Of a stretch of DNA of 64,000 nt, positions 9,340 to 33,521 are shown piece after piece (positions within the stretch are counted from its first letter, which is position 1; every line of letters starts with the position of its first letter). The notes beneath the pieces are model-generated. The model was not told where the DNA came from and searched no databases. It saw only the letters and a list, made by a program, of their open reading frames with translations. Both the position numbers and the translations under genes were made by a program. Origin of the DNA: a virus; IMG/VR virus record IMGVR_UViG_3300045988_060496, positions 114,625-178,624 of that record; one strand, 5' to 3'.

Positions 9340-9659
9340 ATCTTCTTCACTATTCTAGTTAGAAAATTATTTCCTCTTAGATTGAACTTATGTGTATATC
9401 CAGACAACTTATCTGGATTCCACACAGCGTGAACTATATAGAATAAATATCCTACCGTGTATAACATAATGTTCAGTACTGGGATAAATCCTAGAATTAG
9501 TATTACTAAAACTAGCCACACTGGAACTTTAAGGTCATAGTCTTCTTCTATAAGTGCCACACTTCTGCTATACCCATTGTAGTAAACGGTTACATGGGTA
9601 TCTTTCAAGATAAGCACCGTGATGATTACCATCACAGTGCATATTACTAGATACATCAT
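9312..9659 (-). CDS. small membrane protein
   Basis: Two hydrophobic helices (LVICTVMVIITVLIL; VWLVLVILILGFIPVL). Confidence 0.4.
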   Translation of the reverse strand: MMYLVICTVMVIITVLILKDTHVTVYYNGYSRSVALIEEDYDLKVPVWLVLVILILGFIPVLNIMLYTVGYLFYIVHAVWNPDKLSGYTHKFNLRGNNFLTRIVKKIWKFLNVCV

Positions 9660-10483
9660 TTGTTATTAGCTACGTCTTTAAATAAGGTGGGAACCTGACC
9701 ATAAGTAGGAAGTTTTCCGTCCCACTTCTTAATCATATCCTGTTGAACTATGAGAACTGACAAAGATGCTGAAATTTTTCTATTATATTCAGCTTCTGCA
9801 TCACCCTTAATCTTAAGAGCTTCTGCTTCTCCTTGTGCAGCCGCCACTTTCTTTTTAGCTTCGGCCTCAATAGTCTTAACTTCATTCTCTGCCTTCAAAG
9901 CCTGTTGAATTGCAGCATTCTTAGCATCAATAGAATTGACTAGCGTCTGTGGATATTGAAGACCAGAAGTCATTTGTTCAAGCTGAAAATTCTCAGCCAA
10001 GAGTTCCTTTGACAGTCTATCTTCTATAGACTTCTCAAACTCCTCACGTTTACTTACTAGTTCATCAGTAGTATAGTTATTTAGCTGAATACGAAAAGCA
10101 TTCTTTACGTAATTGTACAAAGTAGTGTTAATTACCTCTACAATATCTTCCTTTCTATACTTCTTAAATACTTCTGGTGATTTCCCGTCAACAATCTTCA
10201 AAGAAATTGTAGGGTCTACAGTAAATGATGACCCATCTTTAGCATTAATACTGAAAGGAGGATAGTCCACAGTCTGTACGAATGTAGGATATTCATATAC
10301 AGCCGTAGTAACAGGATTGTACCATACCGCACCAGTAACAAGAGACACATCGTCTACTCCTTTACCATCTCCGTATAGATTTACCTTGATGCCTTCATAA
10401 CCAGCATCAATTCTCTCATAGCCACAACTAGATAAGCCAAACACTAAAGTTAATACACACAAAATCTTAATAATTGTCTTCAT
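9656..10483 (-). CDS. SPFH/band-7 family lipoprotein
   Basis: Lipoprotein signal ...LSSCG; SPFH-like core (GYEGIKV...TAVYEYPTFVQTV) plus Ala/Glu/Lys-rich helix. Confidence 0.5.
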   Translation of the reverse strand: MKTIIKILCVLTLVFGLSSCGYERIDAGYEGIKVNLYGDGKGVDDVSLVTGAVWYNPVTTAVYEYPTFVQTVDYPPFSINAKDGSSFTVDPTISLKIVDGKSPEVFKKYRKEDIVEVINTTLYNYVKNAFRIQLNNYTTDELVSKREEFEKSIEDRLSKELLAENFQLEQMTSGLQYPQTLVNSIDAKNAAIQQALKAENEVKTIEAEAKKKVAAAQGEAEALKIKGDAEAEYNRKISASLSVLIVQQDMIKKWDGKLPTYGQVPTLFKDVANNK

Positions 10484-10679
10484 TTTCCTTATTTAAATAA
10501 TGTTTCTTAATATATTTGAATATCCTATAAACTAAACTTGGGATTGCCACTAGTAATAGTAACAACCCCAAGATATTTGCAGCATACAATGATTCGGATA
10601 ATAACCATAAGCTGATGTTGTAAATTACAACGATTAATAGAACGGCAACAAATGCCTTAATTAAGTTTTTCTCGACCAT
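10467..10679 (-). CDS. small membrane protein
   Basis: 70-aa ORF, two TM-like segments. Confidence 0.4.
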   Translation of the reverse strand: MVEKNLIKAFVAVLLIVVIYNISLWLLSESLYAANILGLLLLLVAIPSLVYRIFKYIKKHYLNKENEDNY

Positions 10680-10920
10680 AGAATAATATATTCTCTATTG
10701 CCGCTTTTATTATACCATAGTAGTACATTATCCTCTGTAATATCTACATACGGGTCATAATAAATATACGCGGCAAACATTATGCACACAATTATAAACG
10801 CAATCATGATTTATCGAGTTTTAATAGACCCAGGTCTGGTAGTTGCAGCCTGAAAGTCTTTTCCTTGTTTATCCCACCATGCTTGCTTTGCTTTTAACCA
10901 AGCTACTTTTTTCTTATACT

Positions 10921-11937
10921 TCATTGTTCGGAAATTATTACGATACGATTAAATTCATTATCTCCAAATTCAGTGGTAATTCCGCATCCCTTAACAACCA
11001 ATTTATCCTCTGGAGCACCATAGCTAATCAGAGCCTTCTTCATAGATTCTGCCCTAGCTACAGCAAGGTTATTATTAAACTCTTCTGGACCTTCTTCCGA
11101 AGCATATCCCTCAATTACATAAGTTTTTCCACTATTAGAAATATAGGAAGCTAGTTCTGAGACAGCCACATTGGAAGTTTTAGAAATCTCTGAAGAATTT
11201 TGAAGGAATTGAATTTTTGGAGTCAAAAGCTCTACTTTAGTAATTTCGATTGTGTCTGTCTTAACAATTTCTACTGGTTTACGAGCCATAAGTTCCTCAT
11301 TCTTGGCTCTCAACTCATTAATAGAAGCGTTTAGGCTTTCAACCTCGGCATCACTATACAACTTCATAATTGGAAAGTCCCCTTTGCTAGACTTAAAGCG
11401 ATAGGTAGCACCAATATAGACGTTAAACTCATGATTCAGAGGAGAAGTCTTGGGAAGTAACATATACTCAGGAGTAACATTTAATGCCCATCTATTAGAG
11501 ATATTAAAGTTACATCTAACGGCTCCACGGGCGGATACATTATTATAGACATCTCCATAAGTATGATACCAACCAGCACCAACGATTAGTATAGGCTCAA
11601 ACAGACGCCTATCTCCGTTATATCCACATATCAGGTTAGTAAGATTGGTAGTAACGTTAGCTGTCAAATTATGTGAATCAAAGAATGTTTTATTTCCTTG
11701 GTTCATTCCAGCCATCATGTCTAACTCCAAGCCAAAGATAGGAGTAATCTCCTTACCAATAGCAATGTTTACTAGTACATCATTTGGTTCTGCCCAACTT
11801 CTATGGTTATCCCAAATAGTAGTTCCAACATTACCAGAAATATACCAGTTATCCTTCATACTTTCAGTCTCAACAACTTGTGCGCTAGCAAATGCACACA
11901 TTAAACACAAACAAATAATACTAAAAATTCTCTTCAT
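10921..11937 (-). CDS. OmpA-family outer-membrane protein (signal peptide + OmpA C-terminal peptidoglycan-binding domain)
   Basis: Signal MKRIFSIICLCLMCAFASAQ; C-terminal YVIEGYASEEGPEEFNNNLAVARAESMKKALISYG matches OmpA_C motif. Confidence 0.65.
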   Translation of the reverse strand: MKRIFSIICLCLMCAFASAQVVETESMKDNWYISGNVGTTIWDNHRSWAEPNDVLVNIAIGKEITPIFGLELDMMAGMNQGNKTFFDSHNLTANVTTNLTNLICGYNGDRRLFEPILIVGAGWYHTYGDVYNNVSARGAVRCNFNISNRWALNVTPEYMLLPKTSPLNHEFNVYIGATYRFKSSKGDFPIMKLYSDAEVESLNASINELRAKNEELMARKPVEIVKTDTIEITKVELLTPKIQFLQNSSEISKTSNVAVSELASYISNSGKTYVIEGYASEEGPEEFNNNLAVARAESMKKALISYGAPEDKLVVKGCGITTEFGDNEFNRIVIISEQ

Positions 11938-11953
11938 AATTAAATTAATTAAA

Positions 11954-12388
11954 TTAATCCCACCAAGTTCTCATACGTTCAAACTTAAGTTTATTGTACA
12001 AGTACCAGGCTTTTTCTCTTCTTAAATGGTCTTGAAGAATAGGTTTACTCAAATCAAGATCAGCAGCTTGAGACCAGAATCGTTTCCAGTTCTTAATGTT
12101 TATGTGCCTATCCACGAATCCTTCAGACCCAGGTCTGAAATCGCAATGATAGGCAGAATCTATCTCTAGAACAATATCTAAAAGTCCTAGTGCGAGTTTT
12201 AGATTCTTTTCAACAACTTCATTACCTTCAGCAATTCTAGATACCTTGAAGTATTCATACATTCTAATTAAAGCTTGTTTCTCTAGGGAGAGAACAAAAC
12301 CATAATCAAACGGATAGAACTTCATAGCCTCTTTAATGAGTCTCTTGTTTTTGTTCTTTCTTAGTTTCATATTCTTGACTTGCTTCAA
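11954..12388 (-). CDS. hypothetical protein
   Basis: 144-aa ORF. Confidence 0.45.
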   Translation of the reverse strand: MKQVKNMKLRKNKNKRLIKEAMKFYPFDYGFVLSLEKQALIRMYEYFKVSRIAEGNEVVEKNLKLALGLLDIVLEIDSAYHCDFRPGSEGFVDRHINIKNWKRFWSQAADLDLSKPILQDHLRREKAWYLYNKLKFERMRTWWD

Positions 12389-12794
12389 CTGCTAATTTAT
12401 CTGCTAAATTGTTCATTTCAGAAAAGAAATCGGAATTTGAAGTGTGTCCCTTAACCCAACAAAATTTTATGTCAGGACAAAACTGGCTTGCCTTAGCAAA
12501 AACTTTGTCATATAAGTTCCACAACTCTACATTCTTTTTTCTTTTCCATCCTTTTGTAGCACATCCTATTACATACTGAGAATCTGAATAGATGGTAAGA
12601 GATTCTATCTTACGACTTACTGCATTAAGAGCATATATTACAGCTAACAACTCACATTTGTTGTTAGTAGTATTTGGAATCATCTTGCTAAATTCATAGG
12701 ATTTTTTCCCATCAATTACGAATACAGCTCCTACTCCTCCTGTATTTCTAGATGAACTAAAAGCTCCGTCAGTAAAGACCTCTAAATTACTCAT
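12333..12794 (-). CDS. rnhA: ribonuclease HI
   Basis: RNase H motifs TDGAFSSS, ELLAVIYAL, YSDSQYVI, GHTSN..NNLADKLA. Confidence 0.8.
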   Translation of the reverse strand: MSNLEVFTDGAFSSSRNTGGVGAVFVIDGKKSYEFSKMIPNTTNNKCELLAVIYALNAVSRKIESLTIYSDSQYVIGCATKGWKRKKNVELWNLYDKVFAKASQFCPDIKFCWVKGHTSNSDFFSEMNNLADKLAVEASQEYETKKEQKQETH

Positions 12795-13179
12795 TCTGAG
12801 TATTAGTCCTGAGATTAGTTCCTAGTATTGCTATCTTTAGCAGGTCGTCTTGATTGTCACAAAATATATTATCTAAAATATAGTTTGCGTAATCAACAAT
12901 TCTAACTCTCTTTCCTATAGCACCATATTTTTCGTTAAGCCATTTAAGCTGAGGAGCAAAATCTTCTAGGTCGTCTCCTAAATGCCGTAAAGCCTTCCTA
13001 ACAGGAACAGGAAACCACATTTTCTCCTTTATCCAGTCTAAATGACAATAACCAAACGCAAATGCTCTACTTAAATCCTTCTGAATAAACTCGTCTAACT
13101 CGAAATTTCTCTCATGCCTACCAGCTTCCTCGAAATCATCTTTCAAATCCTCACAAAAAATCTGATTAAATTCAATCAT
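12787..13179 (-). CDS. hypothetical protein
   Basis: 130-aa ORF, 8-nt overlap with neighbours. Confidence 0.45.
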   Translation of the reverse strand: MIEFNQIFCEDLKDDFEEAGRHERNFELDEFIQKDLSRAFAFGYCHLDWIKEKMWFPVPVRKALRHLGDDLEDFAPQLKWLNEKYGAIGKRVRIVDYANYILDNIFCDNQDDLLKIAILGTNLRTNTQNE

Positions 13180-13570
13180 AACTCCAAGTTTCTAGGCAAG
13201 CTATAAGTTCCAGCATCCCATATCTGCAAATAACCTTGAATGGTCCAGTAGCTATAGAAAGATAAGGACTTTTGTTGTCATTGTACAGCTTCATTACTTC
13301 TCTTAGTAGTATACTAGCATTTCTGGATAGTTCGTAAAGAGTGGGAACTCTGTGTTCGTTCGGACCTACATACATTTTCCATGTACTTTTGCCTATACAG
13401 CGACCCTCGTCATCATACTCTCTATGACTCTTGTTCCACTGCATATACTCCAGAACCTTATCAAAATCAAAGTTCTCCATAATGCTTTTGTATTGTTCCT
13501 CCAATGGGGGACAATCATCCCTTGTCAGGACTGTTCTCTTTGTTTTGCTCATTTTTGTAACAATTAACAA
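13172..13570 (-). CDS. hypothetical protein
   Basis: 132-aa ORF. Confidence 0.45.
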   Translation of the reverse strand: MLIVTKMSKTKRTVLTRDDCPPLEEQYKSIMENFDFDKVLEYMQWNKSHREYDDEGRCIGKSTWKMYVGPNEHRVPTLYELSRNASILLREVMKLYNDNKSPYLSIATGPFKVICRYGMLELIACLETWSYD

Positions 13571-13856
13571 GATTCTGTAAGTTGGACAACTTATCAGTTC
13601 TTACACTGACCAGTAGCCCACCCTTACGTAAGTTGTAACTAAGTTTAATTCCGCAATGATTTAGAATTTCGATAAACTCTCTCAATGCGCTTCCCTTTAA
13701 CACATTTCTGTAGACTAGTTTCTGACCATCTTGATATCCTGCTCGATAATATTCATTCGCAACATCAGAAATAAGCCATCGCTTAATAGGAGATACCCTA
13801 CTTAAGAGTTCATTGACTCTGGTTGCGATAAAATCCATATTACTGAATACTATCAA
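13515..13856 (-). CDS. hypothetical protein
   Basis: 113-aa ORF. Confidence 0.4.
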   Translation of the reverse strand: MIVFSNMDFIATRVNELLSRVSPIKRWLISDVANEYYRAGYQDGQKLVYRNVLKGSALREFIEILNHCGIKLSYNLRKGGLLVSVRTDKLSNLQNLVNCYKNEQNKENSPDKG

Positions 13857-14013
13857 TTACAAGACTATCCACACCTAGAGTGTCTACACTCATTGTGTCA
13901 GCAACTTCTTTAACGATTGCGATAGAATCGTTTTCTGGAGCCTGAGTTTTTGTATTACCTGCACAAGCAGACATCAGTGCAACCATTCCGAAAAGCAATA
14001 GTACTTTCTTCAT
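13840..14013 (-). CDS. small lipoprotein (57 aa, below ORF-track cutoff)
   Basis: Manual translation MKKVLLLFGMVALMSACAGNTKTQAPEND...: signal peptide plus lipobox Cys. Confidence 0.4.
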   Translation of the reverse strand: MKKVLLLFGMVALMSACAGNTKTQAPENDSIAIVKEVADTMSVDTLGVDSLVIDSIQ

Positions 14014-14488
14014 TTTTCTTAATTTAAATTAGTTAATAATCATTTTATCTATCAAAAAAAAAGAGTGGTTCCAGTATCTGTGCTTCACCAGATACTTTCC
14101 CCACTCCTATCACTCCGAAGAGCTTGTACCATTATTAGGTTGGTCAACCTCCCTCTTCATCTTGTTGAGAATTTGGGATAATAGTCACCAAGTTTAAAGA
14201 TTACTTGTAACTGAAGCAAAAGGCTAGAATCCCGAAGGGATTCCGTAACTCCTTCAACACGTGGTTGACGAGCTATGTAGGAAGCTAACGCGCAGGCAAA
14301 GATGAAGCCATAGTCAAAGACCTAGCTACACTAACAAAGACTAAGACAAAGACTCTCAATTAGAGAGTAGGTTGTAAATTTTTGTGTAGCCAGCGAATAA
14401 AGATTAAATCCATGCGGATTTAAGAATATACTGTTCATAATTATTCCTGTTAAGTATGTTATGTTAGCTTCCTACGGAAGTCCTCTAA

Positions 14489-15400
14489 TTACTTAGAGGA
14501 AGAGTCGCCTTGTCTCCTAATCTCTTCGAAAATATCTAAAAGATTCTTAGGCAAAGCGATTTTTAGTTTGGAAATACGTTCCATTTCAGAAGTTTTCCAA
14601 CTATTGAAACGACTTCTCAACTCTCCTAATTCGGAGGTATATTTGTCGTATTTTGCTTTAAATTCAGCCATTTTCTCACGATACTCTTGTTCTTGAGTGT
14701 TAGAAAGTTTATTAACCTCCTCCTTAAGCTCAGCTTTAAGAGCATTTAACTCCTTCTCGTAAGAACGATAGGTGTCTTGAAGAGACATGAACATATTGTC
14801 CACTTTTTCTACTTCGATGGTAGGGTCTTGGTAGTAGAGAATTAAATCTCTTCCAGAGCCTTCCTTATAGATAGGACAATTCTCAGCTGCATGAACTTCT
14901 TTTCGTGCTTTACTAAAGGCTCCTTTTGGATGAATATACTTTCCATAGGTAGAAGCAAACGCCTCTAATCTTAGGAATTTATTTCTCTTGTTAATATCCC
15001 ACGACTTTATGATAGTCTCTTCAGTCGGAGAAGGTAGAGCTTCTGGATACTTAGGCTGCTCTGGCAGTCCTATTCCCTGACTTTCTGCCCAATCATCAAG
15101 CATAGTAGCAGATACTTTGCCAATCATTCCTTCTTTCTCTTTAATAGCTTCTCGTACCCAAGCACAAAAACTATTCATGGCAGCGACCTTTTCCAAATCA
15201 TCTTTTATAAAGTCAAGGGACTTTTGTCCTACTGTCATTAACTGCTTTTCTCCTCCACCGATAGAGGCTACAGATACTTGAAAGAATTTCACATTATTCA
15301 AGCGTTCCTGTGCTGCTTGAATCATTTCTTGTGCGATGTTCGCATAGAAGTTTGCTGACGTAGAAGTCAACCCTTCATTTCCAAAAAATACACTGTTCAT
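14489..15400 (-). CDS. hypothetical protein
   Basis: 303-aa ORF with coiled-coil-like C-terminus. Confidence 0.5.
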   Translation of the reverse strand: MNSVFFGNEGLTSTSANFYANIAQEMIQAAQERLNNVKFFQVSVASIGGGEKQLMTVGQKSLDFIKDDLEKVAAMNSFCAWVREAIKEKEGMIGKVSATMLDDWAESQGIGLPEQPKYPEALPSPTEETIIKSWDINKRNKFLRLEAFASTYGKYIHPKGAFSKARKEVHAAENCPIYKEGSGRDLILYYQDPTIEVEKVDNMFMSLQDTYRSYEKELNALKAELKEEVNKLSNTQEQEYREKMAEFKAKYDKYTSELGELRSRFNSWKTSEMERISKLKIALPKNLLDIFEEIRRQGDSSSK

Positions 15401-15591
15401 ATTAGTTACGTTTTGTTAGTTTATCCACAACATTAATTATTGATTCTTCTCCTGCTATAAATCCATCACGATGAACATTTCTAAGTAAACTCTTCAGAGA
15501 TTCTAATTCTTCGTCTGACTTTAGAGTATTTTTTCTATATATTTCAATAAGTTCTTCTATATATCTTTCCATATTATTGATATTAAATTAG

Positions 15592-15677
15592 TACCCGAAG
15601 TGGGACTCGAACCCACACGCCCATTACTGGGCATCAGAGCTTAAATCTGACGTGTCTACCAATTCCACCATTCGGGC
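15592..15677 (-). tRNA. tRNA-Leu(UAA), type II
   Basis: Acceptor GCCCGAA/TTCGGGT, anticodon arm TCAGA-TTTAAGC-TCTGA, long variable arm, T-arm GTGGGTTCGAGTCCCAC. Confidence 0.7.
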
Positions 15678-16420
15678 ATAGTGATTAGCTATACTCACGT
15701 ACCGCTAATCAACTTACTATAATAACAGTACAAGTGTTAAATTCAAAGTTAAAAACCGTTAACTTATTTAAACTGCAAACAAATGTTAATAAATTTATCG
15801 ACATCAGTTCCGCAATCTACATAATTCGGAGTGTTAGCTTCGAAGTATTTGAGAACAGCCTCTGTTCCAAAAAGTCCTATCTCTTCGAAATCATACCCCT
15901 CACCGTGAATATCCGATGTAGGCATATTTGGTCTGAATACTAACCAGGCTGTACCAGGAAATTCACAACACGTACAAACAGTCAATCCACTTTCCCTTAG
16001 TTTATCTAAGATTTGTGGACTAACTGTTTTCAATACGACACAATTATCCGAGTTCTGCAAGTCGTTGTCTGATTTCATCTTCGGACATACTTTCCATTTT
16101 CTCAGACTGTTTCTTAGCCAGCAGTTCAGTCAGGCGTGCCTTCTCAGCTGCCTTATCTTTAGCTGCTTCTCTAGCGGCCTTGTCTTTCAGCTTATCAGTG
16201 ATAACATCTTTCACAATGTTGAACTTTAACTCCAGTTCGCTATTGCTAGGAGTATCATTAGTTATGAAAGATTTTCTAGGACTCTTGGCTAATTCTTCGT
16301 CATAGGACACTGCCAGTCTGTCCAATGCAGGCAGACTTAAGTCCCACAAATCTTCCACACTCAAATTACCTTTACTAGTTGCAAAGCGCAACTTCATTTT
16401 AGACGCTTGTTTGTACATAA

Positions 16421-18436
16421 TTAGAATTTAATTTTAAATGGTTTATTATCAACTTTAACTACAACCTCGTCGTGAGACGTACTAGAGAATCCTAGTCCAC
16501 TCAACTGGTTATCGTTGTATTCTGCTTTAGCTCTAGAGCCAATAGCTTCGAATACTCTCTTATGATCTTTTTCGAGATCGGGTCTCAGATATTCATTGAA
16601 GAATCCTCGAACTGGGTCAGGATTTTTACATCCATCAATCATGAAGAATAGGTGCTTGTTTCCTATTTCATTACCTTCCCAATAATTTGGAGAATACATG
16701 ATGCAAGAAACAGTTTGGAAACGCATAGTATCAATGCCCCACTCGTTCATAGACTTGTATGAAGTTGCACCTTCGGCAATTACCGGACTTAGGGTTATAT
16801 TACCAATAGAATCTACCTTGATAATTGCTACCGCAATATATTCTCTGTCTGACACCATCTTATCATAGTTGAACTTATGAAGTTCTCCATTGATTTCGAT
16901 TTCTACCTCGAATCCAAAGTCTATATGTTCTCTTTTGCAGAAGTTATGCACACGCACTTCATATCGACCTGCTCTGAGTTTAGATTGGTCAGTCCAGATA
17001 ATATTCTCGACTGCATCTCTGGTTTTACCAGAACCAGCGTTCATATCTACATCTAGTGTACCACCAGTTAATCCTCTCTTATGCCCGTAATAGATTTCAT
17101 TACCACCAGGTTCTGTTACATGGAGGTCAAGGTCATCATAGTTAAACCAGTGTAGAGAACATCTTAGGAATCCATTTACGTTACCACCTGCTGCTTTTAC
17201 TTTCTCCTTGAATGAATCCGCCATAGAGCCATTATACACCCAAGCGAAGTTATTCTTCCATTTGAACAGCTGACCTGCATCAGGGTTCTCTGGAGCAGTT
17301 AGGGTAACAAAATTAGGAATATGCTTATTCTCAACAAGAATTTGCACATCCTTAGAGTGTGGCAATACATTAGTTACAAACTCCGAAATTGAAATTTCAG
17401 TAGCTTTGGTATACTCTTTAGGATTAACCGTTGAGGTCTCTTTTAAAGAGTCAAATATACCTCCTTTCATACGTGCACGAGTGTCTCTATTTACGAACAG
17501 AACGTCGTTTACAGAAATATCTTCTACACGAGCATGACGGCGAGGAAGGGCATCAGTTAACCCAAGTTCTTCAACCTTCTTCTGAGCAGCCTCAATTTGT
17601 TTCTTAGTAATAAGAGCAGTAGGTCTCTTATAGTTAGATGGAGCCATAATGTTCTCATAAGACTTAACAGCTCTTTCCAGGTCTACACCATTACTTAAGT
17701 CAATCAGTAGAGTTCCCATAGCCGTATTTCTAATTTTAGCTATTGGAGATTTGAAGTTAAACCAACAATAGTTAGTGCGAACCTCTGGTGAGAGATTATC
17801 GGCCTCAAGCATAGTTCTTCTGAACTCTTGCAGAGTCTTTAGGAACTCTTCTCCGCGATAGAGATTATTATCCTCTATCAACTCAATTACGGTTTCTACC
17901 GCACTTAGTTTAAGCTCGGAAAGAGAGCGTTCAAAGACACCAGCTCTAGCTCTAACATCTCCGCGATAACCTGCGGCAGAATCGAAATGATGTACTCTCT
18001 TGTTGAATTTAAACTTGTTAGGAATAGTCACGTACAAGTGAGTCCAAGTTCTAGTAGTTCCATCAGGAAGAAGTTGCACATTATGGTCACAACCGTGAAA
18101 CTCATTAACATCCTGAATGAATATATCTCCTATTCCAGCTTCCTTAACGAGCTTAGCTAAATCAGATGCGGTCTTTTCATAGCCAGGAGTGTGAACATCA
18201 TCCCAGAAGGTTTTCACCTTGTAGGTTTGAGGGTCTATAGCGACTACCTTACCATAGTGACGTATGAAAGACTTACAAGCATTACAATTGTGATCTTGCC
18301 GAATTGTTTCGTCCTCAAAGGAGAGAAGATAACTCATCCACAAAAGGTCTTTGTCTACATTAACTACAAATAAATTATCTGCAATCATAGCATTGAAAGC
18401 AGACTCTACATCTTTCTTGAAATCTTTAAAATTCAT
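16421..18436 (-). CDS. large hypothetical protein (671 aa)
   Basis: Long uninterrupted ORF; no motif recognised by eye. Confidence 0.5.
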   Translation of the reverse strand: MNFKDFKKDVESAFNAMIADNLFVVNVDKDLLWMSYLLSFEDETIRQDHNCNACKSFIRHYGKVVAIDPQTYKVKTFWDDVHTPGYEKTASDLAKLVKEAGIGDIFIQDVNEFHGCDHNVQLLPDGTTRTWTHLYVTIPNKFKFNKRVHHFDSAAGYRGDVRARAGVFERSLSELKLSAVETVIELIEDNNLYRGEEFLKTLQEFRRTMLEADNLSPEVRTNYCWFNFKSPIAKIRNTAMGTLLIDLSNGVDLERAVKSYENIMAPSNYKRPTALITKKQIEAAQKKVEELGLTDALPRRHARVEDISVNDVLFVNRDTRARMKGGIFDSLKETSTVNPKEYTKATEISISEFVTNVLPHSKDVQILVENKHIPNFVTLTAPENPDAGQLFKWKNNFAWVYNGSMADSFKEKVKAAGGNVNGFLRCSLHWFNYDDLDLHVTEPGGNEIYYGHKRGLTGGTLDVDMNAGSGKTRDAVENIIWTDQSKLRAGRYEVRVHNFCKREHIDFGFEVEIEINGELHKFNYDKMVSDREYIAVAIIKVDSIGNITLSPVIAEGATSYKSMNEWGIDTMRFQTVSCIMYSPNYWEGNEIGNKHLFFMIDGCKNPDPVRGFFNEYLRPDLEKDHKRVFEAIGSRAKAEYNDNQLSGLGFSSTSHDEVVVKVDNKPFKIKF

Positions 18437-23341: not shown

Positions 23342-23350
23342 ATGTTCCCG

Positions 23351-26501: not shown

Positions 26502-26622
26502 AGTCGGAGATTCAAAGTTAAACTATGTTAATTCCAGTCTTTCGTCTGGCACTCCACCTCGTTTTAACCAATAGCTACTATTATTCACTATTTGAGCTAA
26601 GCTCTAAACTGGGATAAAGGTA

Positions 26623-27006: not shown

Positions 27007-27413
27007 TCATCTGTCGTTAATAATCCTTTCTCGCATAGACCTCCATCATAGAATATACATGATGAGCATGAAAGATTGTCCCTGGACTCATATTCCTGAA
27101 TACCTTCTTGAATATCTCTTTTTGCTTTATATCTATCCTTTCTATTCTCTTTCTTGTATTCATATTGCATCATTCTGCTTCTATAAGGAGAAGTACAATT
27201 CTTAAGCATCTTTGCGTATTTAGAACTATCAAGGAAATCCGTAATTGACTCACAGACCTTCAACGCCTTATTCCTTATTATAGGAACATTATACCTTACA
27301 TTGGCTTTAATCCCGGCAACAGGTACGTAAAATTTGCCGCAAGCGTTGTAAACCTTTTTAGCTCTCGAAATCCACTTTCTTTTAGAAAGTTCTCTTCTCA
27401 ATTCTCTATCCAT
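26985..27413 (-). CDS. hypothetical Cys-containing protein (ORF-track N-terminus trimmed to internal Met because it overlapped tRNA-Cys)
   Basis: ORF 26985..27620 runs through tRNA-Cys; Met at ~27413 (MDRELRRELSKRKW...) gives a non-overlapping gene. Confidence 0.4.
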   Translation of the reverse strand: MDRELRRELSKRKWISRAKKVYNACGKFYVPVAGIKANVRYNVPIIRNKALKVCESITDFLDSSKYAKMLKNCTSPYRSRMMQYEYKKENRKDRYKAKRDIQEGIQEYESRDNLSCSSCIFYDGGLCEKGLLTTDDCPEYWD

Positions 27414-27433
27414 AAGCAATAAGATTAGTGTAG

Positions 27434-27507
27434 AATCTAGAGTGGGATTCGAACCCACGAAACACGGTTTTGCAGACCGTTCCCTTAGACCGCTCGGGCA
27501 TCTAGAC
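27434..27507 (-). tRNA. tRNA-Cys(GCA)
   Basis: Acceptor GTCTAGA/TCTAGAT; anticodon ACGGT-CTGCAAA-ACCGT; T-arm GTGGGTTCGAATCCCAC. Confidence 0.65.
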
Positions 27508-27534
27508 ATAAAGGGGAGACTAGCTCCCCAAGTT

Positions 27535-28950
27535 TTATAGTACCAAAGAGTTGTAAGTACCTCTACGATACAGAGACGGTTTACTATTTGGATCTTTAAC
27601 CCAGTAGTAGTTAACCTCATTATTTTCCTTAGTAACTACGATTCCCAACTTTTTGTCAATCGCAATGATTTCCTCATCATAGAAGTCGTCTCCAACTGAC
27701 AGATTTGCGAACTTAATATCCGAGGATACATAGAAATATGACAGACTGTGGAAATTGTGGCGACGATATTCATAATACTCGTTAAGAGCTTTTCTTTCCT
27801 CAACAGTGCAGTTATCCTCATCGTCTACAATAGGCTTCGGTATCGGATTGTTGAATCTCTCAACAGCTTTAGAGAACTCCTCAATAGAGAATTTACTCTT
27901 ATCGGCAGAAGAAATCTCATAAGCATATGCATAACCTCTGACGCAGGAATAGTCATACTCATTAGTTACTACATTGAAGAAGCTCTTAGCTCTTCTCAAT
28001 CCTTCTATACCGTGAATATTGACCTCATTAACTATAGTTTTGAGAATATCAATAGTAGATATAGTCAAAGAATCAATGAAATCAAGCAAATCTTGACGAG
28101 CTTCCGGCACTTGAAGTGCGTCGTCCAGATATTCGTTCACAACCTTCAAATCCAAGTTGCCAAATTCCTTGACATAACGGATTCTAGACGGACGTCCTAC
28201 CATATTCTCATTGATGGTCATAGCATTAGTAGTAAGCAGGAAAACCCTGCGATACTTAGAGTTGTAAACACCGTCCATGATTTGCAAGATAGTAGAATCC
28301 GATTCACTGAAATTCTTTTCAAATTCATCCAAGAACAGAATGCAATCTCCTTCAATACCAGAAAGGAACTCAATCATAGATTGATTATGGTCTCCCATAT
28401 CCTTTACGATAATGATGGGCAGATTTAGCTTGTTAGCCAGTTCCTTAGCAGTAACAGTCTTTCCAGTGCCCTTTGTACCAGTAAGCATAATTCCGAGATT
28501 GCCTTCTGTAGCGTGATACGTCTTAATTACATGGTCAATAAACTCGTTCTGCAAACCATACATTTTGTACGGGAATACAAACTTATCCGCATATCTGTCT
28601 AGGTGATAACCTGTCATTGTCAGACAAATACTGTAGATTCCAACTGGGAGAGACTGCTCAACGCTATAGCCTGAGCTTACCTGGGTATATGTAGACCCAG
28701 AACACATCCAAACTTTGTTCATTTTTTCTTTTTCTAAGTTACTTAAAACAGATGCCTGTTTGAGACATCCTACTAATTGATTAGCTATAGAATCTATAGC
28801 TTCTTTGTTATCAGTTTCCTCTGAGAGTCTTTTTACAAACCACTCTTTAGAACGGGCAACTATTTGCTCATCAGTCTCATTTTCAGAGATTGTTTCAGCA
28901 AATTCATGGTAGATACTAGTCAGCTTACCTTCTAATTCTTCTACGGTCAT
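27535..28950 (-). CDS. AAA+ ATPase
   Basis: Walker A GTKGTGKT, Walker B ILFLDEFEK in the 471-aa ORF. Confidence 0.65.
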   Translation of the reverse strand: MTVEELEGKLTSIYHEFAETISENETDEQIVARSKEWFVKRLSEETDNKEAIDSIANQLVGCLKQASVLSNLEKEKMNKVWMCSGSTYTQVSSGYSVEQSLPVGIYSICLTMTGYHLDRYADKFVFPYKMYGLQNEFIDHVIKTYHATEGNLGIMLTGTKGTGKTVTAKELANKLNLPIIIVKDMGDHNQSMIEFLSGIEGDCILFLDEFEKNFSESDSTILQIMDGVYNSKYRRVFLLTTNAMTINENMVGRPSRIRYVKEFGNLDLKVVNEYLDDALQVPEARQDLLDFIDSLTISTIDILKTIVNEVNIHGIEGLRRAKSFFNVVTNEYDYSCVRGYAYAYEISSADKSKFSIEEFSKAVERFNNPIPKPIVDDEDNCTVEERKALNEYYEYRRHNFHSLSYFYVSSDIKFANLSVGDDFYDEEIIAIDKKLGIVVTKENNEVNYYWVKDPNSKPSLYRRGTYNSLVL

Positions 28951-29327
28951 TAGTAATCCTCCTCGTTATGTTCATTAGTTATGAGAGAACGAGCCTTTTC
29001 CATACCAGATTCGTAAGCCTCTGTAACAAACACTATGGCAGTTTTTAGGTCCATTCCCAAGTGAGGGTTATGTACTTCTCTATGAGAATTAGCGCATAGA
29101 AGTTGACATTTATCTGCTTCCTCTTTAAGCCTTTCTAGACTTGTATTAGATAAATGTCTCATATCTAACTGAAACTCTTTCTCATCTGGATTGATATGGT
29201 GAAATTCTAGAACAGCTATGTTTCTATCATAGCCGCATAGTTCACATTTACCACCACGAGATTTTATTAGCTCTAATTTGCGCTTTAAACCTCTTAACTT
29301 TTGTGTATTATAATCATTGTAATTCAT
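28950..29327 (-). CDS. HNH endonuclease (start trimmed to internal Met to avoid tRNA-like region)
   Basis: CELCGYD...LEFHHINPDEKE...LLCANSHREVHNP HNH motif. Confidence 0.6.
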   Translation of the reverse strand: MNYNDYNTQKLRGLKRKLELIKSRGGKCELCGYDRNIAVLEFHHINPDEKEFQLDMRHLSNTSLERLKEEADKCQLLCANSHREVHNPHLGMDLKTAIVFVTEAYESGMEKARSLITNEHNEEDY

Positions 29328-29400
29328 ATACAAATATATATGAAAATAATCATAATACCAAATGTTTTGGTGCAAAATTAAAAATTCAATCCAGAAGTTG

Positions 29401-29477
29401 TAGGGACGGTGGGGTTTGAACCCACGTGCGACCAACTACCCTTTCTACAAGGTATAAGCTTGAGGGGATACGTCCCT
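29401..29477 (-). tRNA. tRNA-like gene, atypical (anticodon undetermined); adjacent tRNA 5'-half-like fragment at ~29495-29523
   Basis: Perfect 7-bp acceptor AGGGACG/CGTCCCT and T-arm GTGGGTTCAAACCCCAC, but no canonical D/anticodon arms fold. Upstream GGACCTATAGCTCAGCCAGGTCAGAGC looks like an orphan acceptor+D-arm. Confidence 0.35.
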
Positions 29478-30390
29478 ATCTGACTCATAATTAGTTGCTC
29501 TGACCTGGCTGAGCTATAGGTCCGATTTAGTCTCACTATCGTAGGACTATAAGCTCCCAACGTCCGACTGGCTACGGAAGGTTATTTACCGGTCTAATAA
29601 CCTATTCTACTGTTAGTTCCTGTTCGCAGACATATTCAACTAGCAATTCATCATTACCAAATACCATAATCTGCAATACCACAATTTCCGGCCCATCCTT
29701 ACTTAGTCTTGGTCTACTAGAGAATGCGTATTCTGACATAGAAGACCTAGAATGAAACCTTACGAATTTACTTCTAGGATGAGACCTCTGGATTATTCCG
29801 CTACTGGGAGTATTTAGAGATACTTTACTAGTTATCTCCCCAATATTGAAAGAAGTTACGTTAAGCATAAGCACTTATTGATTGACATTTAAATATTATA
29901 GTTTTACCGATAATATCATCAGGCTTTATGTTAAACTTAGCAAACTCCTCAACCAGCTCATTCATATCTTCTACAGAATACGTTTCTCCAATAACTCTCA
30001 TATTATCTAGAGAAGTTTGGAAATTCTTTAGTAGTTCTGTAAGTAAACAGCTATTAATTATCACTTTCATTTTACTATGATTTGCTCTTCAGGTTTTAAC
30101 TTAGCTGGAGCATCAGAGTGTAATTTACCACATCTTACACACCAACAAACTCCAAATGAATTTTCTCTCACTTTACATCTGCCTTTCTCACAGATTTTAA
30201 CTACTTTTCTGTAATTCTCCTTATCCATAATTATATAATTTAGAAATACAGCCTTACTACCCCTATGTTCCTAGTTATTCTTTAGCTAGCTTTAGATTAT
30301 TACTAGGTAATACCGCAACGGATTTATTCAGCTGACTTTACCGCCTCTTGGTATGCAAGGCTAGGTCTCCCTAGCGAAGCTGTATTTAGT

Positions 30391-30460
30391 TGGGCTACCA
30401 GGACTCGAACCTGGACTCTCAGAACCAAAATCTGATGTGACTACCATTACACCATAGCCC
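30391..30460 (-). tRNA. tRNA-Gln(UUG)
   Basis: GGGCTATGGTGTAATGGTAGTCACA...; anticodon TCAGA-TTTTGGT-TCTGA; T-arm CCAGGTTCGAGTCCTGG. Confidence 0.75.
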
Positions 30461-30524
30461 AGTTTAACTTAACTATTCTCTCGAACCGTTAAGCCCATAT
30501 TTACCATGAAAAACACACAATGCG

Positions 30525-30601
30525 TGGGACGAGGCAGGATCGAACTGCCGCTATCGTCCTGGATTTTCAGTCCAGCGCTCTACCTACTGAGCTATCGTCC
30601 C
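30525..30601 (-). tRNA. tRNA-Phe(GAA)
   Basis: Acceptor GGGACGA/TCGTCCC; D-arm GCTC-AGTAGGTA-GAGC; anticodon CTGGA-CTGAAAA-TCCAG. Confidence 0.75.
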
Positions 30602-30863
30602 ATGTAATTAGATACTCAAATCTAATACTTTTTTGTTCCACCAGTTAGTTAAATCTTGTAAAGAAAACTTAAATTCTTCCTCAAATTTTTCTACCGGAAC
30701 AGTTTCATCTCCTAATTCTATTGCCCATCTCCAGCAAGCTTCTGTTTCAGCTACGTCAATAGGCTCTTCCATTAACCAAGTATCATCCATAAGCATATCA
30801 AGAAATGACTTATGAAGAGACTTAAAGATTTCAATTCTTTCTTCCATAACAAATTTTATTAAG

Positions 30864-30948
30864 CGGAGGCAGCTGGATTCGAACCAGCGGGACCCGAAGG
30901 CCCTCCGTCTTAGCAGGACGGTGGTTTAAGCCACTCACCCATACCTCC
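30864..30948 (-). tRNA. tRNA-Ser(GCU), type II
   Basis: Acceptor GGAGGTA/TGCCTCC; anticodon CCGTC-CTGCTAA-GACGG; long variable arm; T-arm GCTGGTTCGAATCCAGC. Confidence 0.75.
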
Positions 30949-31010
30949 AAATTGCGAAGGGGCTTTTGTTATACTTTACTATTGAAATTGTAAAGCCCCT
31001 TCGCTGTGAA

Positions 31011-32984
31011 TTACTTCACTTCTTCAAACTCAGTTGTTTCAGCTTTCTTCTCCTCCAACTCTTTCTTGCCGAGAACACTTTTCAGTGTATCAGCGAAAGG
31101 TATAGAGCGAAGCAAGTCGAACGCAGGATTCAAGTTCTCAGCAGTTTTAGCCATGAAGTTACCAGCGGTATTCTCGTTACCATAAACAGTAACCTGTCCA
31201 AGGTGAACGTGTTCAAACATCTGAGCAGATGCTTCTGCAATACCTGTCAACTGGTCAACTGTCTTGTACTGAACCACCATTTCAGGAGTCAAGCCAGATT
31301 CAATCATCTTCTGGACTGCCAGAGCAGGAGCCATTTCAATAGCCTGGACTTTATCAGCCTCAGCCATCAAAGATGCTCTCTTACCCTCAGCTTCAGCAAG
31401 CAGTTTCTTTCTTGTACCTTCAGCTTCGGCTTCTAGCTGCAACTTTGTAGCATTCGCTTTAGCTTCTGCTTCTTTCAGAATTTCAGCAGCCTTAGCTTCT
31501 GCTTCAAGTACAGCTTTCTGCTTAACAGCTTCTGCCTCAATCGTAATACGTTCCTTTTCTTTTTGGGCAGGAACAATCGTCTCAGCATGAAGCTTAGCTT
31601 CCATAGCCAATGCAGCTGCTTCGTTTACTTCCAGTTGCTTTTCTTGCTTAGTTTTCTCGATAGTCATTTGAGCTTCTACCTTAGAAGTTCCTGCTACCTT
31701 TTCAGCTTCAGCCTTAGCTTTCTCGGCCTCTCCCTTAGCTTTAGAGACTTCAATTGTGGCATTTTGTTCTGCCACTCCTGCAATCTTATCAGCTTCAGCT
31801 GCCTTTACACGCTTGTCTGACTCATACTTAGCAACTGCAGCTTCCTGTTCGTTAATTGCCTTTTGCGTCTCAGCTTCCTGTTTTTGTTTAGCCTGAGCAA
31901 TACGAGTTTGTTTCTCTGCTTCTGCTTCTGCTTTCTTAGAGTCAGCTTCTGCTTTAGCCTTAGCTACATTAGCCTCAGCCAGTGATTCAGACTCTGCTCT
32001 GTTAGAATCGGCTTCTGCTTGAGCTTTAGCTATAGCTGAAATTTTCTCAGCTTCTGCTTTAGCTTTCTCTGATTCCGCTGCAGTATTAGCTTTAGCAATA
32101 TTGGCAGCTTGTTCAGCTTTCTGATTAGCAATACCTGATTGCTTATTCTTCTCAGCTTCTGCAAGTTTGATTTCCTTCTCCTGGTTAATCTCTGCCACAC
32201 GAACCTCTTGCTCTTGTCTAGTCTGAGCAACAGTAGTTTCACGCTCTTTCTCAGCGTCTGCTACAGCAATTTCACGTTGCTTGTTGGTTTCTGCAATCTG
32301 AATATCTCCTTTCTTTTTCTCTTCTGCAATGTCAGCCTGTGCCTGAGCAAGAGCTTTAGTTGCAGCTTTCTGACCTAGATTCTTGATATAGTTTGCATCA
32401 TCCGAAATATCGGCATTGTTAATGTTGATAATACTGAAACCTACCTTATTCAACTCGGTCTCAATATTCTCCTTAGCTTTGCCGATAAACTTGATTCTGT
32501 CAGCGTTAATTTCCTCAATCGTCATCGTAGCCATCAAGCTTCTCACTTCACCAATGAGAATATCCTTGATTTGGTCTGAGATTTCAGAAGTTTTAGCTGT
32601 TAAGAATCTACTTGCAGCGTTTTGCATTAATGTTTGAGTAGTTCCAATACCAGTGGTCAATGTTACAGGAATAGTTACCTTAATCATTTGACTGGAAACA
32701 CCAGTAACATTTACTTGAATTTGGATAGGTTTCAAGGACATTTTAGCCCAGTCTTGGATTACTGGCATTACGAATGTACCTCCACCATGAATGATTTTGG
32801 ACGGCAGAATAACTTCCTCCGACTTTCCAGTCTTCTCGTTAACTACCTTCTTCTTACCAGCCTTACCAAACACAACCAAGATTTCATCACTGGCACACTT
32901 ACGATACCGTGACAAAAGTCCAATAAAGGTTAAGACTACTAGCAATACAATAACACCTGCTACAATAAGAGTTTCTGTTGTCAT
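31011..32984 (-). CDS. flotillin-like protein (SPFH domain plus long Glu/Ala/Lys-rich coiled coil; YqiK/FloT-like)
   Basis: N-terminal TM, SDEILVVFGK...SPFH core, then ~350 aa of EA/KA repeats typical of flotillin C-termini. Confidence 0.6.
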   Translation of the reverse strand: MTTETLIVAGVIVLLVVLTFIGLLSRYRKCASDEILVVFGKAGKKKVVNEKTGKSEEVILPSKIIHGGGTFVMPVIQDWAKMSLKPIQIQVNVTGVSSQMIKVTIPVTLTTGIGTTQTLMQNAASRFLTAKTSEISDQIKDILIGEVRSLMATMTIEEINADRIKFIGKAKENIETELNKVGFSIININNADISDDANYIKNLGQKAATKALAQAQADIAEEKKKGDIQIAETNKQREIAVADAEKERETTVAQTRQEQEVRVAEINQEKEIKLAEAEKNKQSGIANQKAEQAANIAKANTAAESEKAKAEAEKISAIAKAQAEADSNRAESESLAEANVAKAKAEADSKKAEAEAEKQTRIAQAKQKQEAETQKAINEQEAAVAKYESDKRVKAAEADKIAGVAEQNATIEVSKAKGEAEKAKAEAEKVAGTSKVEAQMTIEKTKQEKQLEVNEAAALAMEAKLHAETIVPAQKEKERITIEAEAVKQKAVLEAEAKAAEILKEAEAKANATKLQLEAEAEGTRKKLLAEAEGKRASLMAEADKVQAIEMAPALAVQKMIESGLTPEMVVQYKTVDQLTGIAEASAQMFEHVHLGQVTVYGNENTAGNFMAKTAENLNPAFDLLRSIPFADTLKSVLGKKELEEKKAETTEFEEVK

Positions 32985-33002
32985 CTTTTAAAAATTCTTT
33001 TT

Positions 33003-33521
33003 TTAGTTAAAATAATACTTTCCATTCTCAAATTTAGAAATTACCACACGAGTACCAACCATATATCCCATTTTTGGGACTTCTGGATAGGCTACAATTT
33101 CCTCAGAACCTCCATTTACTTCAATAGTAATGAAGAAATGGTTTTCACAAGGAACTGTGATAATTCCAACCCTTCCAATCAAGGCTTCACCCTCTTCTGG
33201 AATGACTTGATGCTGGAGTTTTAAACAGAGTTTATATAAGTAGTAAAGTATAACCACGAAAAGAATACCGCATACTAATGCGATTAGATAATCATACCAT
33301 TCTACAGAATGGGATACGGATTGCTTAACACAAAGCCATCCACTAGCTCCCATTATAAAATGGATTAATCCCTTAAATGAGACAATATCACTCACGTTCA
33401 TATCTAGTTCTCCATCTAAATCAACATCTAAGTCAGTGTCTCCACCAAACCAAGATAAAATGAATTGAACTAGAAAAATGCCATACGAAATGGCTGCTAA
33501 GAGATAATAAGTTTCGCTCAT
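33003..33521 (-). CDS. NfeD-like membrane protein (flotillin partner)
   Basis: N-terminal TM helices plus C-terminal beta-rich segment IGRVGIITVPC...GTRVVISKFENG; sits immediately downstream of the flotillin-like gene, as in yqiJ-yqiK operons. Confidence 0.45.
   Translation of the reverse strand: MSETYYLLAAISYGIFLVQFILSWFGGDTDLDVDLDGELDMNVSDIVSFKGLIHFIMGASGWLCVKQSVSHSVEWYDYLIALVCGILFVVILYYLYKLCLKLQHQVIPEEGEALIGRVGIITVPCENHFFITIEVNGGSEEIVAYPEVPKMGYMVGTRVVISKFENGKYYFN

Follow-up and report, generated by a model that had tools for sequence, protein, structure and literature searches.

A crAss-like human-gut phage carries a flotillin gene paired with an NfeD-like membrane protein gene

Results

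Gene content and phage context

The window analysed here, 64,000 nucleotides of IMG/VR record IMGVR_UViG_3300045988_060496 (positions 114,625 to 178,624), derives from a crAss-like human-gut phage of ~185–190 kb. The features of the window fit the Zeta group of crAss-like phages: late genes are TAG-recoded, and the phage has 23 tRNAs and one DGR. Terminase, portal and tail genes are located in the same window as the flotillin pair described below, and there are IMG/VR contigs of 170–193 kb, which bears out the phage origin assumed in the initial annotation. The terminase, portal and tail ORFs lie on the strand opposite to the genes of interest and contain 86 in-frame TAG codons. The genes for the flotillin, its NfeD-like partner, an SPFH lipoprotein and an OmpA-family protein (Table 1) are all found on the standard-code early strand. 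The strand of the flotillin pair also holds replication genes, nucleotide genes and tRNAs, and both genes of the pair lack in-frame TAG codons and stop at TAA.

The TerL relatives of the window all belong to crAss-like phages, with listed hosts that are all Bacteroidota (Bacteroides, Flavobacterium, Azobacteroides). Given that full-length relatives of the OmpA protein also occur in Prevotella Lak phages, a member of the Bacteroidota is the likeliest host, as had been suggested. A phmmer search with the four proteins against all six-frame ORFs of the window, with TAG read through, found no additional copy. PADLOC-DB defence models gave no match for the flotillin, the NfeD-like partner or the OmpA protein, and only a chance-level coiled-coil match for the SPFH lipoprotein.

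Table 1 Features of the three loci within the window
Feature	Coordinates	Strand	Length	Description or basis
Membrane ORF	9312..9659	-	115 aa	Directly downstream of the SPFH lipoprotein gene, 4-nt overlap
Prohibitin/HflKC-like SPFH lipoprotein	9656..10483	-	275 aa	Signal sequence ends LSSC, as read from sequence
Two-helix membrane ORF	10467..10679	-	70 aa	17-nt overlap with the 5' end of the SPFH lipoprotein gene
OmpA-family outer-membrane protein	10921..11937	-	338 aa	N-terminal beta-barrel and C-terminal peptidoglycan-binding OmpA domain
Flotillin (SPFH2-type)	31011..32984	-	657 aa	Anchor, SPFH domain, A/E/K/Q-rich helical region, flotillin-like C-terminal region
NfeD2-type partner (YuaF-like layout)	33003..33521	-	172 aa	Fold, transitive homology, synteny
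Small ORF	33518..33736	-	72 aa	Signal-peptide- or lipoprotein-like N-terminus; sequence

A phage-encoded flotillin

The flotillin/YqiK-like architecture proposed previously for the longest of these proteins was confirmed. Hydropathy reveals a single N-terminal hydrophobic helix (residues 6–24) followed by three K/R residues, after which residues 47–223 match Pfam Band_7 (PF01145; E 1.3e-19, 71.3 bits compared to a cut-off of 23.6). Residues 205–560 (~355 aa) consist to 65% of A, E, K and Q. BLASTP against E. coli YqiK returns an alignment with E 2e-13 that spans N- and C-terminal parts, while PDB sequence matches are to flotillin-1 and flotillin-2 only (E about 1e-17). The best NCBIfam match is the FloT model (E 1.1e-38), although the trusted cut-off of the FloT equivalog (NF058507) is missed by a wide distance (133.6 vs 700 bits). 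By sequence comparison the protein belongs to the flotillin family but is no equivalog of B. subtilis FloT.

The sole match for the C-terminal 179 residues is Flot (PF15975), at 17 bits and below the 27-bit cut-off. The orthologue from phage csAssE-Sib passes PF15975 at 38 bits and aligns with the window flotillin through that region. At 657 aa, the window protein exceeds YqiK (553 aa) as well as the csAssE-Sib (566 aa), L084 (518 aa) and KIT04 (473 aa) proteins, with the extra length residing in the coiled-coil region. An AF2 model predicts long helices at low confidence, and with a pLDDT of 52.8 is too poor for use. Flotillin is rare among sequenced phages, the csAssE-Sib protein being the one other full-length copy.

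The partner resembles NfeD2 proteins

The initial annotation counted three SPFH-family proteins; there are two, the third being the non-SPFH NfeD partner of the flotillin. Direct searches with this partner against Pfam, NCBIfam and PHROG gave no match, with no hit to Pfam NfeD even at E values up to 10, and the profile of the partner family found no NfeD match among PDB sequences. Among the Pfam families named beforehand, PF01145 is matched by both SPFH proteins and PF00691 by the OmpA protein, but PF01957 is not matched by the window partner directly.

The AF2 model of the partner (pLDDT 81.6) has helices at residues 3–23, 48–69 and 74–101, followed by five strands that form an OB-like beta domain (about 117–170). 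Comparison of this C-terminal fold to 48,164 PDB chains placed NfeD domains in all four best positions, ahead of other OB folds. The family profile search recovered 1044 clusters; two of the 34 full-length but distant members, all of which score E <= 2.6e-15 against the profile, match PF01957, the best with E 4.4e-6, and the distant member P0344 has a precomputed NfeD match and precedes a Band_7 gene. Furthermore, a 77%-identical viral protein (virus sp. ctML55) carries the UniProt name 'NfeD-like C-terminal domain-containing protein'. PMC2636767 describes NfeD2 proteins in which three hydrophobic helices at the N-terminus are joined by a short linker to an all-beta OB-fold domain at the C-terminus, a layout that the AF2 model of the window partner reproduces. 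The partner is a short NfeD lacking a ClpP-like domain, and a conserved acidic loop with the DxDxDG-type motif DTDLDVDLDG separates its helices 1 and 2. No similarity was detected between the partner family and E. coli YqiJ (DUF1449; hhalign probability 1.5%, E 0.035). The partner is NfeD2/YuaF-like and, by the hhalign test, not of the YqiJ family. Of the yqiJ–yqiK arrangement put forward in the initial annotation, the NfeD-type partner upstream of the flotillin and the bacterial gene order stand, but the likeness to YqiJ does not.

Conservation of the gene pair

The NfeD-like gene is transcribed before the flotillin gene and ends 18 nt ahead of its start on the same strand. This order is kept in all 77 IMG/VR loci, over a range of flotillin identity from 100% to 46%. 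Phage csAssE-Sib (41% / 37% identity) shares it too, as does, weakly, a Lachnospirales locus. Conservation of the order across such divergence argues for selection, and the two genes make up an operon of the SPFH2/NfeD2 type known from bacteria.

The small ORF in front of the pair may be the operon's first gene, as its stop codon (TGA) shares bases with the start codon of the NfeD-like gene in the sequence ATGA. In close relatives this slot is variable, containing one of two unrelated alleles (type A in 12 loci, type B in 20) that can differ beside identical flotillins, and no such ORF turned up in the 48 loci at greater distance, all of which retain the pair. The neighbours of the pair differ among the window, distant Zeta-like loci and csAssE-Sib, with no client protein besides the NfeD partner conserved beside it in these three settings. 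No protease gene or domain is linked to either the flotillin or the SPFH lipoprotein locus.

The SPFH lipoprotein and OmpA loci

The SPFH lipoprotein, correctly recognised as such at the outset, matches Band_7 (E 3.4e-22), PDB prohibitin-2 (residues 25–231, E 1.8e-6) and, in effect over its full length (residues 1–265), the 'lipoprotein' family phrog_200 (E 3.7e-60). Relatives were found in 565 of 50,697 phage records, including those of P1-like phages, Kayvirus and the crAss-like cr126_1. As a member of phrog_200, a family widespread in phages, it is ordinary, and its presence in a phage is not unusual. The flanking ORFs also have positional counterparts. A small membrane ORF is placed like the two-helix ORF in both cr126_1 and a P1-like phage, with an alignment identity of 23–30% that is too low to establish homology, while the cr126_1 counterpart of the downstream membrane ORF has 21% identity and a similar layout.

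The assignment of the OmpA-family protein likewise stands, with matches to both OMP_b-brl (E 6.5e-11, 43.1 bits, cut-off 28.7) and OmpA (E 5.8e-11, 43 bits, cut-off 27.2); its NCBIfam matches are to OmpA-like families only. The N-terminus (...AFASA/QV), as read from the sequence, resembles a signal peptide. OmpA barrels of this kind are uncommon in phages: full-length relatives occur in only 19 phage records, of which 15 are Prevotella Lak megaphages. Within the same phage lineage the protein is conserved at 86–100% identity.

The initial annotation viewed these genes as a scaffold and outer-membrane protein set. However, the loci lie 21 kb apart and are distributed independently of one another, which leaves a coordinated set unsupported; the flotillin pair, the SPFH lipoprotein and the OmpA protein thus do not form one system.

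Discussion

We propose that the pair serves to build an early flotillin dome on the cytoplasmic face of the host inner membrane that would reorganise or stabilise this membrane, with the remaining envelope genes acting independently. Drawn by analogy with bacterial systems, this explanation is given a probability of roughly 0.55 as a whole. The flotillin and NfeD partner would be made early in infection, as suggested by their location on the replication, nucleotide and tRNA gene strand, the lack of in-frame TAG and the TAA stops. By hydropathy and the charge rule only, both proteins are predicted to be inserted in the inner membrane of the host and to lie mostly in the cytoplasm, given the positive residues after the anchor of the flotillin and after the last helix of the NfeD protein. 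The orientation of the partner is uncertain, with a strongly acidic loop following helix 1. The flotillin may then form an oligomeric dome or cage that covers a patch of membrane containing the NfeD partner. Dome structures are described for flotillin and other SPFH proteins, and the solved HflK/C and QmcA–YbbJ assemblies are built in this way.

What the phage gains is a more tentative matter. The assembly might take over membrane homeostasis, so that the inner membrane stays ordered, sealed and energised while a long and demanding infection proceeds; by itself, this payoff is somewhat less probable than an even chance. It is modelled on the role ascribed to the sigma-W-controlled yuaFG operon under envelope stress. 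Bacterial flotillin mutants have mild phenotypes, and hence the benefit to the phage may be subtle or different. The variable small ORF resembles an exclusion or arms-race gene more than a housekeeping one. The SPFH lipoprotein, on the periplasmic side, and the OmpA barrel, in the outer membrane, would be separate rather than parts of one machine.

Superinfection exclusion or receptor masking, in which early membrane proteins alter the envelope so that other phages fail to adsorb or inject, is an unlikely alternative. The exclusion proteins that are known (T5 Llp, T4 Imm/Sp, Cor) are small membrane proteins or lipoproteins expressed early; all genes considered here are early and standard-code, an OmpA-type barrel, once exported, would be located at the cell surface, and the exchange of unrelated lipoprotein-like alleles beside identical flotillins is cassette swapping typical of arms-race genes. 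The flotillin–NfeD pair could act in this way in concert with the variable small lipoprotein; the SPFH lipoprotein and the OmpA barrel could do so separately. However, the pair itself is strongly conserved rather than diversifying, the more distant loci keep it without the variable ORF and, to our knowledge, no exclusion protein is a 657-aa scaffold on the cytoplasmic face, those described being small and simple. Slightly less probable again is that the phage controls a membrane protease of the host's quality-control machinery, for example FtsH, which phage SPFH assemblies would cage or recruit in the manner of HflK/C and prohibitins. HflK/C, found via lambda lysogeny control, cages FtsH, and B. 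subtilis flotillins affect FtsH. Prohibitins are the closest solved structures to the SPFH lipoprotein, and an interaction of YbbK (QmcA) with FtsH is cited in PMC2636767. The payoff would be protection of phage proteins or a reset of envelope synthesis. Yet neither locus is linked to a protease, the partner has no ClpP-like domain, and the sequence contains no specific pointer to FtsH. Furthermore, with the flotillin facing the cytoplasm and HflK/C the periplasm, a single mechanism cannot account for both phage SPFH proteins.

Flotillins are scaffolds for membrane protein complexes, and the phage protein could gather holins or membrane-tethered replication or packaging factors into a platform for replication, assembly or lysis timing. 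The window pair sits among early genes and tRNAs, and the csAssE-Sib pair lies inside a replication block, but the neighbours vary and the NfeD protein is the only conserved candidate client; we consider this improbable. Mis-assignment is already largely refuted and very improbable, whether the flotillin were in truth some unrelated coiled-coil structural protein, the partner a holin-like or generic OB-fold protein, or the region bacterial DNA. The flotillin similarity extends from the anchor, across the SPFH domain, into the C-terminus, and the structural ranking of the partner and the PF01957 matches of its distant relatives, one of them paired with a Band_7 gene, point to NfeD. Bacterial DNA is at odds with the terminase, portal and tail genes, and the conflicting MAG labels (Bacteroides, Clostridium, Gastranaerophilales) fit mis-binning. 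The inner-membrane dome is the reading we prefer over these alternatives. The phage-borne flotillin–NfeD pair is rare in sequenced phages, and no discussion of it was found in the literature searched.

Comparison with known systems

The B. subtilis yuaF–yuaG genes (NfeD2–FloT, an SPFH2a/NfeD2a operon; Hinderhofer et al. 2009, PMC2636767) have the partner ahead of the flotillin, as in the phage. For SPFH2–NfeD2 genes, an operon layout, co-evolution and joint lateral transfer have been described, with yuaFGI under sigma-W stress control (PMC2636767). The present pair differs in being phage-encoded, in its flotillin, which exceeds the homologues compared here in length and falls short of the FloT cut-off, in the lack of a yuaI-like third gene, and in the conserved acidic loop of the partner. 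E. coli yqiJ–yqiK likewise consists of two genes, the one for the membrane partner being upstream. The alignment of YqiK to the phage flotillin has only 24% identity, and YqiJ (209 aa) shows no detectable similarity to the phage partner family.

The large human-gut phage csAssE-Sib (OR575929.1) has the same pair, recorded as 'transmembrane protein' WOZ57346 and 'flotillin family protein' WOZ57345, but belongs to another lineage with a 151 kb genome. Its pair is located between DnaB helicase/primase and exonuclease genes, adjoining an acyl carrier protein. Close orthologues of the window flotillin already carry the label 'flotillin' (JGI), whereas the partner is annotated as merely transmembrane in the csAssE-Sib record or, for a relative of the window partner, as hypothetical (JGI).

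Among phrog_200 lipoproteins, the window protein is 65% identical to its crAss-like cr126_1 relative and differs in nothing notable; both have the same neighbours, namely NAMPT, PRPP synthetase and flanking small membrane ORFs. The OmpA barrels of Prevotella Lak megaphages, unannotated in their records, resemble the window protein over the full length (barrel and OmpA domain) at a low identity of 28–31%. A Bacteroidota host is named for the Lak phages and inferred for the window phage, and both are large gut phages.

A phage copy of the flotillin-NfeD operon

All four ORFs highlighted by the initial annotation were recovered at exactly its coordinates, on the minus strand of what is phage DNA. 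The flotillin and NfeD-like genes among them form a genuine, well-conserved phage version of an operon known from bacteria. The flotillin carries, close to its N-terminus, a single hydrophobic stretch (residues 6-24) with basic residues after it; a Band_7/SPFH domain spans residues 47-223 (E 1.3e-19), and residues 205-560 are composed to 65% of Ala, Glu, Lys and Gln. Among NCBIfam models, FloT scores best (at 1.1e-38, far short of the equivalog cut-off), while the sole matches among PDB sequences are human flotillin-1 and flotillin-2, at about 1e-17. E. coli YqiK matches at 2e-13, in the N-terminal as well as the C-terminal portion. The C-terminal Flot domain scores a sub-threshold 17 bits here, and 38 bits, above threshold, in the orthologue from csAssE-Sib (OR575929.1), another large human-gut phage, which aligns with the window flotillin across this region. 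The proposed flotillin/YqiK-like architecture is thus supported, and the alternative that the EA-rich part belongs to an unrelated coiled-coil protein is not borne out. No flotillin family was found in PHROGs, and phage sequences filled the lists of homologues, which carry no taxonomy.

None of the other homologues seen has so long a coiled coil, a region that varies by block indels. Since the coiled-coil part builds the wall and roof of SPFH cages, it is a reasonable guess that the window flotillin would form a taller or wider dome. An AF2 model of this protein, from an 18-sequence alignment of close homologues, was too poor for fold comparison (pLDDT 52.8).

The partner has no direct match in Pfam, NCBIfam or PHROGs, and its family profile returned only chance transmembrane matches among PDB sequences. 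Its AF2 model (25 homologues, pLDDT 81.6) shows three helices followed by five beta strands that make up the C-terminal domain. This layout matches the one that Hinderhofer et al. (PMC2636767) describe for the NfeD2 proteins that accompany prokaryotic flotillins: three hydrophobic stretches plus an all-beta domain, in proteins whose sequences are hardly conserved and which show co-evolution and joint lateral transfer with the flotillin. An exhaustive profile search expanded the partner family to 1044 clusters; 2 of 34 distant full-length members match Pfam NfeD (best 4.4e-6), and one of these distant members precedes a 518-aa Band_7 gene. Furthermore, a viral protein 77% identical to the partner is named 'NfeD-like C-terminal domain-containing protein'. 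We retain an NfeD2/YuaF-like label; assignment to the YqiJ family was rejected because hhalign detected no similarity to E. coli YqiJ. An acidic DTDLDVDLDG loop (DxDxDG-type motif) between helices 1 and 2 is conserved across the family and may bind cations.

The bacterial gene order suggested for the pair is supported. The partner gene ends 18 nt before the flotillin start, and lies directly upstream on the same strand in 77/77 flotillin-carrying loci retrieved from IMG/VR (flotillin identity 100% to 46%). The same arrangement is present in csAssE-Sib (151 kb; 41% and 37% identity). A Lachnospirales locus with a real bacterial flotillin holds it weakly, with a weakly similar partner, and Vibrio phage KIT04 has a flotillin without a partner of the window type.

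A small ORF adjoins the pair upstream in the window. In close relatives (loci L003-L083, about 3230-3465) this slot contains one of two unrelated lipoprotein-like ORFs of 72-76 aa, either type A (12 loci) or type B (20 loci); in 48 more distant loci the slot is empty. Each type was seen beside flotillins that are 100% identical, suggesting that cassettes are exchanged. The NfeD-like start in csAssE-Sib is overlapped by a gene annotated as acyl carrier protein, directly upstream of the pair (L001, 5182-5917), hinting at a lipid-related context there that is absent from the window.

Features of the window, with positions in nucleotides
Feature	Position	Strand	Remarks
PRPP-synthetase-like protein	6034-6846	-	
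NAMPT	7239-8801	-	
DUF5662 protein	8815-9339	-	adjoins SPFH lipoprotein
SPFH lipoprotein	9656-10483	-	275 aa, phrog_200
48-aa single-helix ORF	10661-10807	-	
OmpA barrel	10921-11937	-	338 aa
RNase H	12333-12794	-	3.4e-25
57-aa ORF	13840-14013	-	lipobox (MSAC)
671-aa protein	16421-18436	-	phrog_1735, 5e-242
AAA ATPase	27535-28950	-	phrog_2376
tRNA-Ser	30863-30948		
Flotillin	31011-32984	-	657 aa
NfeD-type partner	33003-33521	-	172 aa
72-aa ORF	33518-33736	-	signal- or lipoprotein-like N-terminus; overlaps partner start codon
tRNA-Trp/Ser	33759-33930		
Protein with weak radical-SAM match	38421-39380	-	phrog_24834
tRNA, anticodon CTA	41733-41803	-	amber suppressor, flanks strand switch
Strand switch	42000-44000		
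tRNA, anticodon CTA	44175-44247	+	amber suppressor, flanks strand switch
Amber-recoded late ORFs (examples)	50099-52480, 52600-54843, 58029-59885	+	terminase, portal and tail ORFs, open only on TAG read-through
Tail protein ORF	60096-61922		phrog_5302
DGR variable repeat (VR)	61799-61898		C-terminus of tail protein ORF
DGR template repeat (TR)	62000-62099		201 nt downstream of VR
DGR reverse transcriptase (RT)	62207-63514		phrog_1423, 1.3e-88

Separate envelope genes

The remaining two ORFs were also correctly identified: the SPFH lipoprotein has a Band_7 match (3.4e-22) and a lipoprotein-type N-terminus ending in LSSC, and the OmpA-family protein contains outer-membrane beta-barrel and OmpA domains, each above the Pfam cut-off. 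Two of the four ORFs are SPFH proteins, and not three as had been counted; a phmmer search of the six-frame window ORFs found no further SPFH copy or other homologue of the four proteins.

The three loci differ in distribution. The SPFH lipoprotein has relatives in 565 of 50,697 phage records, including the crAss-like phage cr126_1 (65%), Lak phages (46%), and P1-like, Kayvirus and Vi01-like phages; the family was reported in T4-like phages already in 2006. This part of the finding is ordinary. The protein is prohibitin-like, and phrog_200, a common family of phage 'lipoproteins' with members in P1-like phages, can be recognised as such. The OmpA barrel has relatives in 19 of these records, 15 of them Prevotella Lak megaphages, and the flotillin in 7, with a long match (79% of the query) in csAssE-Sib only. 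Lak phages combine the SPFH lipoprotein and OmpA without a flotillin, cr126_1 has the SPFH lipoprotein alone of the three loci, and csAssE-Sib has the flotillin pair and no OmpA match. Given these different distributions and the 21 kb separating the loci, a single envelope system spanning 9.6-33.5 kb was rejected in favour of separate envelope genes.

A NAD-salvage pair, NAMPT and a PRPP-synthetase-like protein, adjoins the SPFH lipoprotein, and cr126_1 has the same neighbourhood of NAMPT, PRPP synthetase, small ORF, SPFH and membrane ORF, the SPFH gene being flanked by small membrane ORFs there too. Small membrane proteins are plentiful in the early region. The 671-aa protein matches its PHROG, a family of unknown function, over the full length, with no Pfam, PADLOC or PDB sequence match.

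Phage context of the operon

Genes for NAMPT, PRPP synthetase, helicases, RNase H and the AAA ATPase lie in the minus-strand half, along with 21 of the 23 tRNA genes. The plus-strand half (42-64 kb) is nearly devoid of ORFs under the standard code; once TAG is read through, long ORFs appear that encode the large terminase, portal, tail protein and reverse transcriptase. Five late ORFs have 86 in-frame TAG against 24 CAG codons (three contain 19, 28 and 21 internal TAGs), and none of the 46 minus-strand genes contains an in-frame TAG. The flotillin operon lies on this standard-code early strand, with TAA/TGA stops. An amber-recoded late and structural module is known in some crAss-like phages. 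The tRNA genes (15591-44247) cover 19 standard amino-acid specificities, without Ala or Val, plus the two amber suppressors; they are scattered among early genes singly or in small groups, all but one on the minus strand, and two of these positions bracket the flotillin operon. Coding strand and GC skew both flip at the strand switch between the early and recoded late blocks, which is a point of divergent transcription and possibly a replication origin or terminus.

A complete diversity-generating retroelement (DGR) is present, with 21/21 TR/VR mismatches at template adenines. Terminase relatives, at 25-44% identity, come only from crAss-like phages of Bacteroidota. The exact flotillin sequence is found on contigs of up to 188 kb; IMG/VR contigs with relatives are 170-193 kb long. 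In the combination of large size, a block of tRNA genes, amber recoding and a DGR that acts on a tail protein, the phage matches the Zeta crAss-like group (PMC7886860, PMC12386605), to which it probably belongs. The phage genome also sits in GTDB MAG contigs of 140-186 kb (L003, L004, L005), labelled Gastranaerophilales, Bacteroides sp. and Clostridium sp. We read these copies as binning artefacts; the conflicting labels make them unfit for host inference, and they were left out of host assignment.

Possible roles in infection

In human gut viromes, Epsilon and Zeta each contribute roughly 13-18% of the crAss-like reads (PMC7886860); the carriers being crAss-like phages, the flotillin-pair genes are abundant in people. 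The literature searched contained no discussion of csAssE-Sib, crAss-like flotillin or phage flotillin/NfeD; public pipelines already label orthologues 'flotillin' and 'NfeD-like'. The partner, so far given no fuller label than 'hypothetical' or 'transmembrane' by JGI and in the GenBank record, can now be annotated as NfeD-type.

SPFH proteins are universal membrane organisers. That the complete operon has been kept over such deep divergence implies that its membrane function during infection is strong and selectable. A more far-reaching reading, to which we give a probability of about one in four, is that the flotillin-NfeD cage is a device dedicated to infection, which Zeta and Epsilon crAss-like phages build on the inner membrane of the host, with a swappable operon lipoprotein in some strains. 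Such a cage might protect the infected cell against premature lysis or abortive-infection effectors that depolarise the membrane, or close the membrane to rival phages. A rival to the membrane-maintenance role set out below is superinfection exclusion by phage membrane proteins, for which the swappable lipoprotein slot speaks; PADLOC returned no match to a known defence system. Alternatively, phage SPFH proteins could control a host FtsH-type protease, or the flotillin assembly could serve as a platform for phage complexes.

If the dedicated cage is real, no SPFH microdomain encoded by a virus would have had a defined infection role before it, and it would belong to one of the most abundant human-gut virus groups. 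The operon offers a natural gain-of-function handle on what SPFH cages do. In the likelier reading, flotillin and partner would, by the charge rule, be inserted in the inner membrane, most of each protein lying in the cytoplasm. As in solved SPFH assemblies (e.g. YbbJ chain 8z5g_B), the phage flotillin may form a dome above a membrane patch containing the partner. The benefit would be a host membrane maintained or reorganised through a long infection, paralleling the envelope-stress control of yuaFGI (PMC2636767).
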